A stretch of DNA of 64,000 bases from Candidatus Falkowbacteria bacterium. GTDB lineage: Bacteria; Patescibacteriota; Patescibacteriia; UBA11705. The stretch spans positions 136,912-200,911 of the forward strand of contig DOZJ01000006.1 of the NCBI GenBank assembly GCA_003518055.1, written 5' to 3'. A model generated the notes under the pieces. The model saw only the letters and a list, made by a program, of their open reading frames with translations. It was not told the DNA's origin and made no database searches. Position 1 is the first letter of the stretch. The number at the start of each line of letters is the position of its first letter. This document shows, piece by piece, positions 2,483 to 59,844 of the stretch. The position numbers were made by a program, and so were the translations under genes.

Positions 2483-2699
2483 TTGATTACTCCTATGGTT
2501 GGGGCAAATTGTCCCGAGGAGATCTCGGGATAAAAGGAACGGTTCAATATATTATAGTGAGCCAGGCGGGCTTTTGTCAAGGGGGCTTGCGGGTTTACGG
2601 GTATTTTGGAAATTACGGAAATTTCGGAAATAAGAAGGGGTTTTGGTTAAAGTAAACACTTGTAGTATTCGTAATCATTCGTAAATTTGCAATATAAAA

Positions 2700-2736
2700 A
2701 AAACCGCTCACTATTTAGGTGAGTCGGCGGGTAAGT
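2700..2736 (-). terminator. Rho-independent terminator of the GC-rich minus-strand gene
   Basis: Minus-strand reading CCGACTCAC-CTAAATA-GTGAGCGG followed by TTTTTTT. Confidence 0.5.
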
Positions 2737-2796
2737 TCACGTTGTGAGCTTTTTGGGATTGCCTCAGGTTTGAGGCTGTGGGGGAGTGCGGTCTTG

Positions 2797-3486
2797 CTAG
2801 CCGCGGCGCTGGACGGTCGGCTCTCGGTGGGAGTCCGCGAGGAGCGTCCGGAGGTTGACCGTGGGCGGGTTGAGCTCGCGCTGCTTCTGGTACTCCTCCT
2901 CCTCGGCGTCCTTGCGGGCGCGGAAGCAGGTGGGGCAGCAGATCGGCTCGCACTTGGCCTTCTCGCGGAGCTCGGTCGGGGTGAGGGTGTTCTGGAAGCT
3001 GCCCGGGCAGTCGTCGGCCTCGTGCACCTCGCACACGTGGGTGTGGAGAGCCTTGAACTTCAGGTTCTTGCGGCCGCCGAGCGCGATGTTGCCGCTGGCG
3101 TTGTCCTCGACGACCACCATCTTGGTGGTGGGGACGACGTTCGGCGTCTCGATCAGGTTGACGTAGCGGACGTCGCCGTGCGCCGTGGACTTCTCGTAGA
3201 CACGGACCGTGCAGACCGCGGTGCGGCCGGCGAGCAGCTTGCCGAAGAGGAAGTAGTTGATCACCAGCGTCTTGCCGGTCTTTTCCAGCAGATGGCGGGT
3301 CAGGCCGACCCACTGGAGATGCGGCGGGATCGGGGTGCCGTCGGGCAGGGTGGCGTCGGTGACGACGCGCACCGGCTGCTGATTGGGCATCAGCTCGGGG
3401 ACGCTGATCTGAACGGCGTGCTTCTCGTAGATGAGGTCGTGAGGGATGTTCTCGGGGTAGGTGTAGGGGCTCTGGAGCTCGCTCAT
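2797..3486 (-). CDS. Hypothetical Cys-rich protein in a high-GC (~65%) island
   Basis: Of three overlapping ORFs in the GC-rich block, this frame has protein-like composition, RBS GGAGGA before the ATG (MSELQSPYT...), its own terminator and a consensus promoter. C-terminal CxxxxC/CCPTC cysteine cluster. The other two frames are Ala/Arg/Gly/Leu-rich antisense artefacts. Confidence 0.55.
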   Translation of the reverse strand: MSELQSPYTYPENIPHDLIYEKHAVQISVPELMPNQQPVRVVTDATLPDGTPIPPHLQWVGLTRHLLEKTGKTLVINYFLFGKLLAGRTAVCTVRVYEKSTAHGDVRYVNLIETPNVVPTTKMVVVEDNASGNIALGGRKNLKFKALHTHVCEVHEADDCPGSFQNTLTPTELREKAKCEPICCPTCFRARKDAEEEEYQKQRELNPPTVNLRTLLADSHREPTVQRRG

Positions 3487-3564
3487 CGGATCCTCCGTAA
3501 AATGGCCCGTTTGGGCGTCATGTGGCGGCAATGCGCCGCGGGGATGGAATGTACAGTATTAAGC

Positions 3565-3593
3565 ATTATATCATATTTTTGACAAAAAGTCAA
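3565..3593 (-). promoter_or_regulatory. Sigma70-type promoter TTGACT-17-TATAAT for the GC-rich gene
   Basis: Minus-strand reading TTGACTttttgtcaaaaatatgaTATAAT. Lies directly downstream of repeat copy L. Confidence 0.5.
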
Positions 3594-3600
3594 TAGTTGG

Positions 3601-3652
3601 GGGTCGGGGGTAGGGTTTAGGGAACCATTGTGATGATTTTTGCCTAAAATAA
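3601..3652. repeat. Promoter-proximal repeat copy L (GGGTAGGGTTTAGGGA...TTGTGATGATTTTTGCCTAAAAT)
   Basis: About 50-nt near-identical copy of the sequence at 4033-4084. Each copy sits just upstream (minus sense) of a consensus promoter. Confidence 0.6.
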
Positions 3653-3653
3653 A

Positions 3654-3682
3654 ATAAAAAAATCGGCTAGATTTCTAGCCGA
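3654..3682 (-). terminator. Terminator of small membrane protein A
   Basis: Perfect hairpin CGGCTAGAAATCTAGCCG followed by a T7 run on the minus strand. Confidence 0.6.
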
Positions 3683-3692
3683 GAGGTGGGCT

Positions 3693-3962
3693 TCAGACTC
3701 GCCATTTGAGTCGATTGAATCTTGAGTGATTCGAGCGAAAGATAAAGAGTTCCCAGCTAAATACCAGCAGCGGTGGATTGATTAGCCAGATAGCTTTACT
3801 GCTGACGGCAAAGGCAATGACATCGATGACTCCGAGTAGAATTACGTTGGCCCAATAGAAGGTGAAAAAGGTGTTTTGGGTCCAGTGATAGGCGAGAGCC
3901 AGCTTCAACCAAACCACAAACAGAACTACAAGAAACAAATGCAGGCCAAGTAGAATGGTCAT
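3693..3962 (-). CDS. Small integral membrane protein A, with basic/aromatic C-terminal tail
   Basis: 89 aa, 2-3 predicted TM helices. RBS GGAGGAACC before the ATG. Consensus promoter and perfect terminator. Paralogous to the 5678..5932 product. Confidence 0.5.
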   Translation of the reverse strand: MTILLGLHLFLVVLFVVWLKLALAYHWTQNTFFTFYWANVILLGVIDVIAFAVSSKAIWLINPPLLVFSWELFIFRSNHSRFNRLKWRV

Positions 3963-15690: not shown

Positions 15691-15857
15691 TAATCAAATC
15701 AGGCTTAGCGGCCTGTTTTTGTTTTACGTTGTAAATCGCCTAATGATTTAGATGTGAAGAAAATAATTGAGACATGTTTCTTCTTATATGAGTTATTTTA
15801 TTGAAAGAAATAAAAAGGCTATATTGCTTAAAATAAGTCTAAATTAGACTTTATCGG

Positions 15858-15886
15858 TTGACATTTTTGGTAAAATGTGATATCAT
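15858..15886 (+). promoter_or_regulatory. Promoter TTGACA-17-TATCAT for the GC-rich Zn-ribbon gene
   Basis: TTGACAtttttggtaaaatgtgaTATCAT, followed by RBS GAAGGGAGGGGA. Confidence 0.5.
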
Positions 15887-15936
15887 GATAGGTCACCTAA
15901 TCGTGCGAGTAGCACCATTACGAAGGGAGGGGAGCC

Positions 15937-16476
15937 ATGAACGGCGGAATCGAGATTCTGTGTCCGAAGTGCGGCAGCTACGCCCACAATGGGCGGGACA
16001 ACTTCTGCGCCTCCTGTGGGCACCGGTTCGAGGCCAAGGACCGCGTCAAGCGGATCGGCGAGCTGCGCGACGAGGGAGTCTATCGGATTTCGATGGAAGC
16101 CTTCGAGGCAGAGTGTAACTGTGAGCCGCGGGAAGGTGGCTACCTCGACAGCTTGGTTGGCCGACATGCCACAGCCGTCCTGATCAAGCTGAAGTATCCG
16201 CGAGAGACCCACCCATACCTCTGCGGCTACTGTGGCAAGCGCGTCTCGGATTCGACCGACGGCAAGTGCGACACCTGCGCTCAGCAGCTGTGGGTGGAGC
16301 GGACCGACGAGTCCGAAGCCCGCTGGTGCTGGAACATGGAGTCGTACGGCACAGCGGTCAACTGTACCTGCGGCCTCGAGGTCTGGACCGACATGCCAGA
16401 GTGCCCCAAGTGCCGCAAGCCGATCGACGAGATCGTCGAGGCGGCATCGGAAGATGACGCAGACGACGACGATTAG
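15937..16476 (+). CDS. High-GC (~62%) multi-zinc-ribbon protein with acidic C-terminal tail
   Basis: Five or more CxxC pairs (CPKCGS...CASCGH, CGYCGK, CDTC, CTCG, CPKC) and a terminal EDDADDDD. Codon usage is G/C-rich at third positions, unlike its neighbours. Has an AT-rich host-type promoter and RBS. Confidence 0.55.
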   Translation: MNGGIEILCPKCGSYAHNGRDNFCASCGHRFEAKDRVKRIGELRDEGVYRISMEAFEAECNCEPREGGYLDSLVGRHATAVLIKLKYPRETHPYLCGYCGKRVSDSTDGKCDTCAQQLWVERTDESEARWCWNMESYGTAVNCTCGLEVWTDMPECPKCRKPIDEIVEAASEDDADDDD

Positions 16477-16630
16477 AGCTTGGTTAGTTCGTCATTTCAA
16501 GTGACAAGGATAAATTTAATCTTTGATTTGTGAGAAGGTTGATAAACAGCCTTCTTTTTTGTTAATTTATTGGCTTTGATAAAGTTAAGTGATATAATAT
16601 GAATGAGTTAATTTATATTTATTTTTAAAA

Positions 16631-46764: not shown

Positions 46765-46793
46765 TTGACAAATATAAAAAACTATGCTGTAAT
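46765..46793 (+). promoter_or_regulatory. Promoter-like TTGACA-17-TGTAAT upstream of the GC-rich noncoding element
   Basis: TTGACAaatataaaaaactatgcTGTAAT. Confidence 0.35.
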
Positions 46794-46828
46794 GGACTAT
46801 TGACAATCAAGATTGGTTTTATTGACGT

Positions 46829-46959
46829 GGGCAGCGCGATTAGTCGCAATTAGGTTACTGTTCGTGAAGTTAGTTTGTTAACTTCGCGCTGCCCAGTTCT
46901 TTTGAGACCAACACCCTGAAAGGAAGTAAAGATTTGATTCTTTCTACTGGGTGTTTTTT
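46829..46959 (+). terminator. Two consecutive strong stem-loops, each followed by a T-run
   Basis: GGGCAGCGCGA...TCGCGCTGCCC (11-bp perfect stem with a nested hairpin) followed by AGTTCTTTT. AACACCC...GGGTGTT followed by TTTTT. Confidence 0.45.
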
Positions 46960-46967
46960 GAAAATTC

Positions 46968-47763
46968 AGGAGCGCCTCCTGGATGGCCCCCACTGCAAAA
47001 TTGATGGGCCGAAATTCATAGGCGTTCCAATCATAGTAATGCCGGAGCATTGGAGAGTCTACCCTGGAGGGTGACTGGTCAGGAATGACCACCAGTGTTT
47101 CCGGCTTGTTGTTCCCCCACGCGGATGCCCTGCGCGCTCGTTCTGAGCCGCCGGTCGTAAGGGGGATGCGACGGAGCTAAGGCTCTTGTCCGCAATCGCT
47201 TCGGGGCGGCATTCATGTCGTTCGGCGGCGGGTTTCGCGGAGATTTGAGCCCGAGCGCTCCGTATTGGGAGAGAGGGTTTTGGCTACCTGGCGTCGAAAG
47301 ATGCCAAAGGATAAGCTGACAGGGGGCAAATCTGTCAGTGGAAATCCGGGGGTACCTAGACCTTCGGAGTGGTGGCTGATCCCACCATCCAAGCCACGTA
47401 CCGGCACAAGCATGCCTACGATTTGGCGGGCCGGTATGGTCGTGTTGAGTGGCAACAATCCCTGATTGTGGCGTATCGGCAGCAGGTCTGTCGGCGTTCA
47501 GTGGGGTGAGCCGCGGCGACATTAGTTGCCAAAGAGGTTGGCGAAGGCTTAGTAGGATGGGTCTTCGCTGAACGCGCCCTCTGGCAGCAAAAAGACAGCA
47601 CAGGCGATTGGGTAGCGCAAACCCGGACGTCTGACGCTCCTCTAGGATAAAATTGGGGATTGCGGTGAAGATGAGAACGTGCCCCCGTTTGATTCCGAGC
47701 CTCTTTCCCCGCGTTTATAAATTTAATCCCGCTGGCGTCACTACGTCTGCGGGCTTTGTTTTT
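46968..47763 (+). ncRNA. Candidate large structured noncoding RNA (about 800 nt, GC about 60%, class unknown)
   Basis: No protein-like ORF on either strand (only Arg/Pro-rich artefacts). Many local hairpins, including UUCG-capped (47356-47372; cgcUUCGggg around 47215) and GNRA-capped (GGCGTC-GAAA-GATGCC, 47290-47305) stems. 3' end has stem CCCGC..GCGGG followed by a T-run. Strand is inferred. Confidence 0.45.
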
Positions 47764-47952
47764 AAAAAAAATATTTGTTTTGTGAATGTAGGTAGAGGGT
47801 TGAAGGGCAACTCCTTTTTTTGTCCACATTGCTAAACGAGTTTTTTGTGGTAAATTGTAGATATCATGGGAAATTTATAGAAAAAAAGAAATTGATTGAA
47901 ATTTATTGGTTGACCATCTAAATTTCCATTTATTTCAAATAATTTCATTATT

Positions 47953-58615: not shown

Positions 58616-58803
58616 TTGACGAAATATTTATCTTTTGCTAAAATATAAATACAAATTAATTCCGCAGACTGCAAGTGTCGATAGACTTAAATATCTTGCA
58701 TAGGAACGAATAAGAGCTTACGGTCTTTGAGCCGTTAGTTTTTAGAAGATAAGTCTGCGGGGAACCGGAGATATTTTTTTACTAATTATTCATTTTTAAC
58801 AAT
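58616..58803 (+). promoter_or_regulatory. rplJ promoter (TTGACG-17-TAAAAT) and structured 5' leader (L10-leader-like autoregulatory element)
   Basis: About 150-nt untranslated leader enclosed by a long-range pairing CCGCAGAC (58662-58669) / GTCTGCGG (58753-58760), consistent with an L10(L12)4-binding leader. Confidence 0.45.
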
Positions 58804-59322
58804 ATGGCTAAAACTAAGCAGCAAAAAGAAGATTTTATTTCTTTGCTCAGAGACAAGCTGTCTGAAGCCAAAGGTGTTGTGGTCGTGAGTTACACTGGTT
58901 TAAATGTTCCTAATACCGAGGAACTTCGCAATAAGTGTAAAAACGAGCAAGTCAACTTCATGGCGGTCAAAAAGACCTTGCTAAAGAAGGTGTTGAGTGA
59001 GTTGAAACTTGATGACGTGGAGCTGGATTACTCGGGTAGTTTGGCCGTGGCCTTTGGTCGTGAGGATGAGATCGCTCCGGCAAAAATCTTGAATGATTTT
59101 GCTAAAAAACATGAAGAAATAGTGTTTAAGGGCGGAATTCTAGAATCAAAGATTATCGGGGTTGAAGGCGTAAAGGTATTGGCGGCAATTCCAAGTAAAC
59201 CTGAATTGTACGCAAAACTTGTCGGATCGTTGAATGCTCCGATCAGTGGATTTGTCAATGTGATGGCGGGAAACTTACGGGGTTTGGTGAACGTGCTTAA
59301 CGCAATTAAAAATAATAAATAA
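58804..59322 (+). CDS. rplJ: 50S ribosomal protein L10
   Basis: 172 aa, collinear with L10. Confidence 0.9.
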   Translation: MAKTKQQKEDFISLLRDKLSEAKGVVVVSYTGLNVPNTEELRNKCKNEQVNFMAVKKTLLKKVLSELKLDDVELDYSGSLAVAFGREDEIAPAKILNDFAKKHEEIVFKGGILESKIIGVEGVKVLAAIPSKPELYAKLVGSLNAPISGFVNVMAGNLRGLVNVLNAIKNNK

Positions 59323-59400: not shown

Positions 59401-59844
59401 ATGACAGATGAAAAAAAGCCAGTTGAAGAAACAACTGTAGCCGAAGAAAAGAAGGCGGTTGAAGTACCGGCGAAATTCAAATCTTTGGTAGAGGAAATTG
59501 AAAAAATGTCGGTTATGGATTTGGCTGAGTTGGTCAAAATTTTGGAAGATAAATTCGGCGTGAGCGCGGCGGCCCCAATGATGGCTATGGCCATGGGACC
59601 AGCTGCCGGTGCTGAAGCGGCGGTAGAAGAGAAATCTGAATTTGATATCGAACTTGCTTCAGGCGGTGCAAATAAAATTGCCGTTATTAAGGTGGTTAAG
59701 GAAGTAACCGGTCTTGGTTTGAAAGAAGCCAAAGATTTAGTTGATGGCGCTCCAAAGGTAATCAAACAGGCCGTCAAAAAAGAAGAGGCGGAAGTCATCA
59801 AAACCAAAATTGTTGAAGCTGGCGGGCAAGTCAATTTGAAGTAA
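59401..59844 (+). CDS. rplL: 50S ribosomal protein L7/L12
   Basis: Ala-rich hinge ([19 protein letters not shown]) and a C-terminal GTPase-interaction domain ([20 protein letters not shown]). Confidence 0.9.

Follow-up and report, generated by a model that had tools for sequence, protein, structure and literature searches.

A GC-rich three-zinc-ribbon gene in an AT-rich Candidatus Falkowbacteria contig and its syntenic orthologues

When a single gene in an AT-rich genome has the base composition of a far more GC-rich organism, was it recently imported, or can the host lineage itself hold a gene in such a state? The question is raised by a 179-amino-acid (aa) open reading frame (ORF) coding for a multi-zinc-ribbon protein, here called ZnR, in a 64,000-nucleotide stretch of contig DOZJ01000006.1 of a Candidatus Falkowbacteria bacterium (hereafter the window). 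An earlier note, made from the sequence alone, had read the gene as a second, independent acquisition of foreign DNA. We present evidence that the gene has orthologues at the same chromosomal position and under homologous promoters in two other genomes, that no GC-rich source for it appears among 1.84 billion protein cluster representatives, and that its synonymous sites have turned over as thoroughly as those of its neighbors while its GC-richness has persisted. Hence, we lean towards viewing it as a native, vertically inherited and monocistronic gene for a zinc-ribbon binding protein, whose GC-richness would be maintained by an ongoing force.

The compositional anomaly is unmistakable. The ZnR gene has a GC content of 0.624, with values of 0.59, 0.47 and 0.82 at the first, second and third codon positions (GC1, GC2 and GC3), in a window whose average is 0.424 and whose 540-bp sliding windows have a mean of 0.424 and a standard deviation of 0.047; only three segments in the entire 64 kb rise above 0.55. 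In 50-bp steps the GC content lies at 0.22-0.32 up to position 15900, at 0.58-0.68 over 15901-16450, and again at 0.20-0.32 past 16500, bearing out the earlier description of a high-GC ORF set sharply between AT-rich flanks. Across the 59 long ORFs of the window GC3 has a mean of 0.46 and a standard deviation of 0.10, with the ZnR gene more than three standard deviations above it and just one further far outlier, the ORF at 2797-3531. The codon usage of the ZnR gene resembles that of classical high-GC bacteria, with CTG, GGC, GCC, GAG, AAG, GAC and ACC as favored codons and third-position frequencies of 0.48 for C and 0.08 for A, and is unlike that of the ribosomal-protein genes of the window (GC3 0.34-0.45). 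This strong codon periodicity indicates that the high GC content is a property of a coding sequence rather than of a structured RNA. The possibility of a structured non-coding RNA misread as an ORF was rejected on the same positional values and on the stability of the predicted mRNA fold, whose minimum free energy (MFE) has a z-score of only -2.0 (0 of 20 shuffles fold as well); the same score led us to discard mRNA structure as the cause of the GC-richness.

The gene is furnished with a full set of expression signals (Table 1). Both the promoter that the earlier note had recognized, TTGACA and TATCAT hexamers 17 nt apart, and its strong Shine-Dalgarno sequence were recovered: a promoter scan gives 11 of 12 matches to the consensus, with an additional extended -10 TG at 15878-15879, and the ribosome-binding site AAGGGAGGGGAG places its GGAGG core (15926-15930) 6 nt upstream of the ATG. 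Transcription would start near 15893, and the terminator-like hairpin beyond the stop codon is followed by a downstream gene which, by the promoter scan, has its own promoter, from 16570. Taken together, the promoter, leader, ribosome-binding site, terminator and separate downstream promoter mark the locus, on the evidence of these predicted signals, as a self-contained monocistronic transcription unit, which is probably strongly transcribed.

The composition step itself is the sole point in favor of a chimeric contig, and an artefact of assembly or binning is practically excluded because the locus recurs in five separate assemblies or samples, derived from different runs and with contigs of up to 354 kb, at 100% identity over up to 10.5 kb and with identical junctions across both GC boundaries; the earlier note's call for a check of read support is thereby answered in the gene's favor. 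No tRNA or tmRNA gene was detected across the 64-kb window, and no integrase domain among the proteins flanking the ZnR gene. A 14-nt imperfect direct repeat (ATGAGTTATTTTAT at 15788-15801 and ATGAGTTAATTTAT at 16603-16616) does bracket the promoter-gene-terminator unit. We rejected it as a target-site duplication, as it is short, AT-rich and imperfect and the flanks of the orthologues differ; it is probably a chance occurrence in AT-rich DNA.

In the protein (isoelectric point 4.8, 15 cysteines) the CxxC pairs number exactly five (residues 9, 24, 96, 111 and 156) and are accompanied by CxC motifs at residues 60 and 143; its cysteines are predicted to form three Cys4 ribbons, in keeping with the earlier note's description of a multi-zinc-ribbon protein. 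The third ribbon is preceded by the motif E(T/S)EARW and is missing from the family members of about 125 aa described below. The acidic end reported earlier is indeed present in the window protein, but it is not conserved: one of the two orthologues (P0002) lacks a tail and the other (P0003) has one rich in cysteine and histidine. AlphaFold2 models had a mean predicted local distance difference test score (pLDDT) of 41 when built from the single sequence and of 85 when given the family alignment. In the latter model the core between the first two ribbons is predicted to comprise strands at residues 47-53, 56-62 and 79-85 and a helix at 70-74; the 10-residue block means of pLDDT reach 94-95 over residues 81-110 and stand at 86-95 over the ribbons (residues 11-30, 91-120 and 141-160). 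Thus, three ribbons about a three-stranded core are confidently predicted. Foldseek searches with the model against PDB and the viral predicted structures of BFVD returned no match at E<1e-3, and a profile search of PDB recovered only isolated ribbons, such as those of eL37, Rpb12, Nop10 and NOB1.

As the earlier note had stated, the protein falls in no recognized family: Pfam, NCBIfam, PHROGs and PADLOC yield nothing but generic ribbon matches, all sub-threshold; the best of the 11 Pfam matches, DZR_2, reaches 23 bits where the cut-off is 27. A word-indexed protein search recovered the query alone when started from the single sequence and six proteins when started from a profile. In contrast, an exhaustive HMMER profile search of the 1.84 billion cluster representatives detected 45 proteins at E<1e-3, about 33 of which we judged by reading the sequences to be true family members, the remainder being long proteins with unrelated ribbon repeats. 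The members share a core of about 125 aa, comprising an N-terminal ribbon, a block of the form YIG..G.YRITF.PVE.EF and a ribbon of the form THPYxCGxC..V...GxCxxC...W..R, in which C9, C12, C24, C27, C96, C99, C111, C114 and W119 are invariant across 30 aligned members. With phmmer, the ten best two-ribbon members match residues 8-125 of the query at E values of 1e-9 to 5e-17, and the weakest at 1e-3. End-to-end matches to it are limited to P0002 (190 aa) and P0003 (201 aa), which share the third-ribbon module E(T/S)EARW...CxCG..V...MPxCPxC; these are also the best non-self matches, at 44% and 39% identity, and both come from syntenic contigs of low or medium GC content. In a neighbor-joining tree the three-ribbon proteins form one clade. 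A locus search with the three-member alignment found no further loci in JGI metagenomes or IMG/VR. We therefore place the ZnR protein, by sequence comparison, in a rare and previously unnamed family, encountered only in metagenomic contigs of small low-GC genomes; it is a zinc-ribbon family with a confidently predicted fold, whose model found no structural relative in PDB or BFVD.

Certain likenesses to known proteins help delimit the family. The generic double-ribbon models DZR (PF12773), DZR_2 (PF18912), Zn_ribbon_3 (PF13248) and Zn_ribbon_15 (PF17032) share with it ribbons of two CxxC knuckles 10-12 residues apart, of the CPxCG or FCxxCG type, and weakly match 18-22 of the 30 members; however, none of them spans the central domain, the THPYxCGxC...W..R ribbon or the third module. 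The small, Cys4, nucleic-acid-associated proteins eL37, Rpb12/RpoP, Nop10 and NOB1 show weak profile similarity to the first or the second ribbon (E = 5e-4 to 0.1), but this is limited to cysteine spacing over 25-35 residues, with no shared architecture and no match at the fold level. The haloarchaeal families DUF7129, DUF7575 and DUF7577 are likewise small, acidic and cysteine-rich proteins encoded by GC-rich genes, with sub-threshold matches to ribbons 2 and 3; yet the similarity (22 bits, where 30 would be the cut-off) covers a ribbon only, and the ZnR family occurs in low-GC genomes at a host-like composition.

The two-ribbon members occur in scattered and unrelated neighborhoods with no conserved partner gene. 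One context looks bacterial, with genes for PriA, Def and ClpB, whereas two may be archaeal, to judge by Pfam content, as they contain TrmB regulators and, in one case, also Archease and RtcB. In the latter locus (L173:7001-7922) a pair of tandem paralogues, P0017 and P0009, both ending in PFLC, lies beside the genes for the TrmB regulators, Archease and RtcB. It shares with another contig (L091) a neighboring CTP-transferase/AAA gene at 46% identity, and both contigs may be archaeal. A further member, P0022, sits among more than 25 small ORFs that follow one another in the same orientation and have almost no Pfam matches (L177:3172-11716), in what resembles a viral or mobile-element region.

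The two three-ribbon homologues are syntenic with the window gene. The window has the order MreB-GT4-delta'-BNR-RRF-p248-GlyRS-p117-ZnR-...-PfkB-MurJ, and the contig coding for P0003 (L087) is collinear with it, with the order MreB-ABC-GT4-delta'-BNR-RRF-ZnR-PfkB-...-MurJ and flanking proteins 40-91% identical to those of the window. In the contig coding for P0002 (L086) the ZnR gene has the C-terminus of GlyRS as its immediate neighbor on one side and PfkB on the other. The nhmmer alignment of the three loci extends from the -35 box onward; all three have a promoter of the form TTGACA/T-17-TGn-TAxxAT and a terminator made of a hairpin and a T-run, and the window and L087 further share the leader ACGAAGG(G)AGG(G)GAGyCATGA. 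Many metagenomic loci anchored on RRF conserve the surrounding block, MreB-GT4-delta'-BNR-RRF-GlyRS-[variable]-PfkB-MurJ. Across 80 such loci from more distant relatives, with RRF identities of at most 61% (except for 100% in a 1.1-kb fragment of the window's own organism), no ZnR family member was found, nor was any seen near GlyRS in 80 GlyRS-anchored genome loci. The absence from the more distant RRF loci implies that the three-ribbon gene is confined to a narrow clade, and the syntenic orthologues in three lineages argue for vertical inheritance rather than recent import. On this comparison of gene orders, the gene predates the divergence of at least three lineages, and all three have kept it between GlyRS/RRF and PfkB. 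In two other loci (L110:12831-13073 and L111:3987-4229) a mildly GC-rich 80-aa ORF with two ribbons (CPRC..CGHC and CMCG..CPVC) occupies the slot directly upstream of PfkB that ZnR occupies in L086. We rejected it as an orthologue, as the pairwise E value is 7e-4 and reflects mostly cysteine spacing.

The earlier note had held that homologues in related low-GC genomes with matching GC content would mean that the gene is not foreign. Low-GC relatives do carry homologues; however, the true orthologues are GC-enriched in both genomes, and that in L087 is a GC3 outlier. The window gene has a GC3 of 0.82 against about 0.44 in its flanks, the L087 gene 0.64 against 0.24-0.38, and the L086 gene 0.69 against 0.51-0.69, the last having an overall GC content of 0.60 vs 0.48. 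Conversely, all seven two-ribbon loci compared have a host-like GC3 (0.33-0.45, in contigs with a GC content of 0.38-0.44), which indicates that the family is not intrinsically GC-rich and that the three-ribbon clade alone is.

We then asked how much of this composition could be a remnant, by comparing the use of the same codon at conserved degenerate residues with that expected from within-gene codon shuffles. The three ZnR pairs give observed and null values of 0.36 and 0.40, 0.51 and 0.44, and 0.37 and 0.37. Between the window and L087 the flanking orthologues retain a residual unsubstituted synonymous fraction of merely 0.02-0.12, even for MreB at 91% protein identity, which amounts to a synonymous turnover of 88-98%, and the residual synonymous identity of the ZnR pair itself is -0.06 +/- 0.08. 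Under an F81-type relaxation that starts from a GC3 of 1.0, with each event redrawing the base from the native third-position frequencies, we calculate that a relic keeping GC3 values of 0.82 and 0.64 needs at least 0.67 x 0.46 = 0.31 of its sites untouched. Set against this requirement, the observed residual rejects a neutral relic older than the split of this pair.

The ZnR gene is not alone in this behavior. Scanning 1.7 Mb of fetched loci for ORFs with coding periodicity and with a GC3 that exceeds the local median by at least 0.25 flagged 37 ORFs, which cluster into several families that are syntenic across genomes and have GC3 values of 0.6-0.97. One of these, an orphan family of 188-295 aa with a very acidic C-terminal tail, follows GlyRS in four loci and occupies the same variable interval as the window ZnR gene. 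Its GC3 lies at 0.76-0.81, compared with 0.30-0.32 in the local background, and it has strong promoters of its own in L101, L105 and L106 (the L100 ORF, which runs off the end of its locus, was left out). Between L101 and L106 the flanks have a residual synonymous identity of about 0, whereas the GC-rich orthologues, at 40% protein identity, retain 0.21-0.24; with GC3 values of 0.81 and 0.76, a relic would need at least 0.48. The genes of a second family, with a GC content of 0.53-0.63 vs 0.38-0.42, lie upstream of MreB and code for a small protein that is predicted to be membrane-bound and has an Arg/Pro-rich tail. This family clusters from five distinct loci on six contigs, of which L101 and L102 are identical in sequence; a BLAST singleton, L103, was added by eye as a sixth locus. 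Paired GC-rich genes are present in L163 and L165. A regular expression for TTGACA-17-TGn-TAxxAT matched 6 of the 12 inspected GC-rich ORFs outside the ZnR trio, and also the 80-aa ORF of L110. A Pfam and PHROG scan of 11 distinct proteins from GC-rich ORFs gave no match.

The other GC-rich gene of the window, at 2797-3531 on the minus strand, codes for a 244-aa protein with no Pfam or PHROG match; it has a GC3 of 0.94-0.96, and the GC-rich flanks extend over 2491-3741. Its promoter, TTGACT-17-TGa-TATAAT, has the same architecture as the ZnR promoter, and it is weakly paralogous to the adjacent gene at 1916-2482 (28% identity over 85 aa, E = 1e-8), whose GC3 is 0.57. A single donor shared by both GC-rich window genes finds no support, since their GC3 values differ and the proteins are unrelated.

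How, then, did the ZnR gene come by its composition? The sharp GC step, a GC3 far above that of the native genes and a word-indexed search returning only the query gene are what a recent, independent foreign acquisition under a host promoter would predict. That proposal did not survive the comparison with its relatives and is now highly improbable: two other genomes contain orthologues at the syntenic position and under homologous promoters, the three proteins form one clade, the rest of the family is at host GC, and neither a donor nor signatures of mobility came to light. Had a GC-rich donor long ago passed the gene to the ancestor of the three lineages, leaving its GC-richness as a slowly decaying neutral remnant, this ancient transfer would account for the codon usage of the classical high-GC type, the failure to find the gene in more distant relatives, the graded GC3 of the orthologues (0.82, 0.69 and 0.64), as predicted by partial amelioration, and the risen frequency of T at third positions in L087 while that of A is still low. 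Nevertheless, we regard it as quite unlikely given the near-complete turnover of the window-L087 flanks, the lack of residual identity in the ZnR pair, the failure to find a donor and the same persistence in unrelated gene families of the clade. Lateral circulation, in which an unsampled pool of GC-rich phages, plasmids or other elements repeatedly supplies or overwrites genes in a GlyRS-PfkB hot spot, with copies younger than the divergence of the genomes, is unlikely. In its favor, the stretch from GlyRS to PfkB is of variable length (0.9 to 4.4 kb) and houses different GC-rich orphans in different relatives, P0022 lies within its virus-looking run of ORFs, and the post-GlyRS family retains somewhat more synonymous identity than its flanks. 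On the other hand, the three orthologues have a common promoter, 5' untranslated region and position, the ZnR synonymous sites are as saturated as those of the flanks, the flanking DNA has diverged too far to permit homologous replacement, IMG/VR contigs yielded no homologue and the cluster representatives no GC-rich source, and no integrase, tRNA or repeat boundaries were found at the locus. An overlapping function, be it an antisense gene that uses the codon-complement frame or a structured RNA within the mRNA, could also constrain composition: the antisense frame is free of stops over the full gene in all three orthologues (window 15937-16476, L087:8001-8606 and L086:305-877), and the mRNA folds better than each of its shuffles. 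However, an open antisense frame arises from the absence of TTA, CTA and TCA codons, which is automatic in any GC3-rich gene, and the fold z-score is weak when compared with the -7.0 of an RNA candidate elsewhere in the window, and the codon periodicity is confined to one frame, making this option very unlikely.

Hence, we favor, with due reserve, the proposal that the ZnR gene is native and vertically inherited, and that a two-ribbon ancestor would have gained the third ribbon in a narrow Falkowbacteria-like clade. An ongoing force would since have kept the coding sequence GC-rich, with selection acting on the transcript or the choice of codons as its most likely form and biased gene conversion as a less likely one; several other orphan families of the clade would be held GC-rich likewise. 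Several observations weigh against this proposal. The three-ribbon subfamily has only three members, so that orthology and the persistence of GC-richness are judged on a small sample. The L086 gene has a GC3 within the range of its neighbors, its anomaly lying mostly at codon positions 1 and 2, and the rejection of a relic is clear for the window-L087 pair only, under a model that assumes simple site-independent relaxation. That the ZnR mRNA is not exceptionally structured weakens the argument from selection on structure, and no fold match in PDB or BFVD supports any specific function. Finally, the absence from the 80 distant RRF loci makes possible a transfer into the ancestor of the clade followed by non-neutral retention. 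The gene resembles horizontally acquired compositional islands in that GC and GC3 deviate sharply within a single gene and in that it lies in a variable interval between conserved anchors, but it differs from them in its syntenic orthologues, its saturated synonymous sites and the failure to find donor or mobility genes.

As a broader and more tentative extension, we raise the possibility that this AT-rich clade of ultrasmall bacteria holds a class of lineage-specific monocistronic genes, ZnR among them, at a GC3 of 0.6-0.97 past full turnover of neutral sites. If so, a gene-specific force would have to act on composition, for which selection for transcripts that resist nucleases or live long, control of translation through codons, and strong local biased gene conversion are candidates; this would run contrary to the usual assumption that bacterial GC islands mean horizontal transfer. 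Compositional outliers are routinely scored as horizontal transfer, and for the ZnR gene this shortcut fails. If borne out, this behavior would make these genomes a compact natural system for studying what maintains the base composition of a single gene, and a warning for the detection of horizontal gene transfer in genomes of the candidate phyla radiation (CPR). A literature search on GC-rich genes in CPR/Patescibacteria returned nothing relevant.

With respect to function, we read ZnR as a small, acidic, cytoplasmic protein with three Cys4 ribbons around a small beta-rich core. With low confidence, we propose that it might depend on zinc and act as a binding or adaptor protein whose partner is a nucleic acid or a ribonucleoprotein, a role for which there are only weak sequence echoes (L37e, Rpb12, Nop10 and NOB1); the variable C-terminal tail, acidic in the window protein, would modulate binding. 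A buffer or metallochaperone for zinc or another metal is an unlikely alternative to such a macromolecule-binding adaptor, even though the protein is 8-10% cysteine, its acidic tail could bind cations, P0003 ends in a metallothionein-like GCPGNCGCNGYCGNACHCQGH tail, four members weakly match the HypA ribbon, and one family member is encoded three genes from a CsoR-type metal repressor that itself adjoins an HMA/cupredoxin protein. Neither this neighborhood nor the tails are conserved across the family, and the invariant cysteines are all taken up by the structural Cys4 ribbons.

Acidic tails are known from recruiters and DNA mimics such as the C-terminal tail of SSB and the phage Ocr-type mimics, and the earlier note likened the end of the ZnR protein to DNA-mimic or recruitment tails. 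Its acidic C-terminus (8 of 12 residues D or E) and isoelectric point are indeed similar, but the tail is unconserved in the orthologues, and the protein has neither an oligonucleotide/oligosaccharide-binding (OB) fold nor a phage context or structural match. We accordingly abandoned a role as an acidic-tail DNA mimic or recruitment protein, given also the failure to find a specific PADLOC or PHROG match and the housekeeping nature of the neighboring genes.

Table 1. Coordinates of the ZnR transcription unit and its protein modules in the window, and of two GC-rich orphan families in related loci
Feature	Position	Strand	Remarks
Promoter, sigma-70-type	15858..15886	+	-35 TTGACA 15858-15863, 17-nt spacer, -10 TATCAT 15881-15886
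5' untranslated region, ~45 nt, inferred	15893..15936	+	from sequence and GC profile; GC rise starts here
Coding sequence, 179 aa	15937..16476	+	GC 0.62, GC3 0.82; stop codon inside coordinates
Zinc ribbon 1 (C9, C12, C24, C27; CPKCG...FCASCG)	15961..16017	+	Cys invariant in 30 members
Central beta-rich/alpha domain, residues ~38-90	16048..16206	+	conserved block YIG..G.YRITF.PVE.EF...
Zinc ribbon 2 (C96, C99, C111, C114; THPYLCGYCG...GKCDTC...W..R)	16222..16278	+	Cys and W119 invariant in 30 members
Zinc ribbon 3 (C143, C145, C156, C159; NCTCG...MPECPKC)	16363..16413	+	invariant in 3-member subfamily
Acidic C-terminal tail EAASEDDADDDD, residues 168-179	16438..16473	+	D/E = 8 of last 12 residues
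Intrinsic terminator-like hairpin, 10-bp stem and T-run	16532..16566	+	hairpin proper 16532-16556
Post-GlyRS orphan family	L100:12068-12634, L101:14708-15439, L105:12054-12941, L106:11959-12585	minus	
Pre-MreB membrane protein	L096:4628-4927, L100:4296-4694, L101:4570-4956, L103:4178-4456, L105:3921-4289, L106:4492-4860		

Three further features of the window were observed. Every 400-bp bin has a positive GC skew, the cumulative skew rises monotonically, and nearly all long ORFs are on the plus strand, which places the window on one replichore with a strong gene-strand bias. The RNA candidate mentioned above, at 46800-47770 on the plus strand, is a region of about 950 nt that is GC-rich (0.51-0.59) and has no codon periodicity (GC1, GC2 and GC3 of 0.62, 0.61 and 0.57; MFE z = -7.0), with a promoter resembling TTGACA-17-TGTAAT near 46766 and, near 47725-47765, a hairpin and T-run. 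It gave no Rfam match at E<=1 and contains no tRNA or tmRNA; from these sequence features we consider it a candidate large structured RNA, situated between a gene for a 264-aa protein of no assigned function and a mutL-like gene, both unannotated here. Lastly, Rfam recognizes a ribosomal protein L10 leader at 58644-58788 on the plus strand (56 bits, above the gathering score), and the two ORFs downstream of it, at 58804-59322 (172 aa) and 59401-59844 (147 aa), probably code for L10 and L12.

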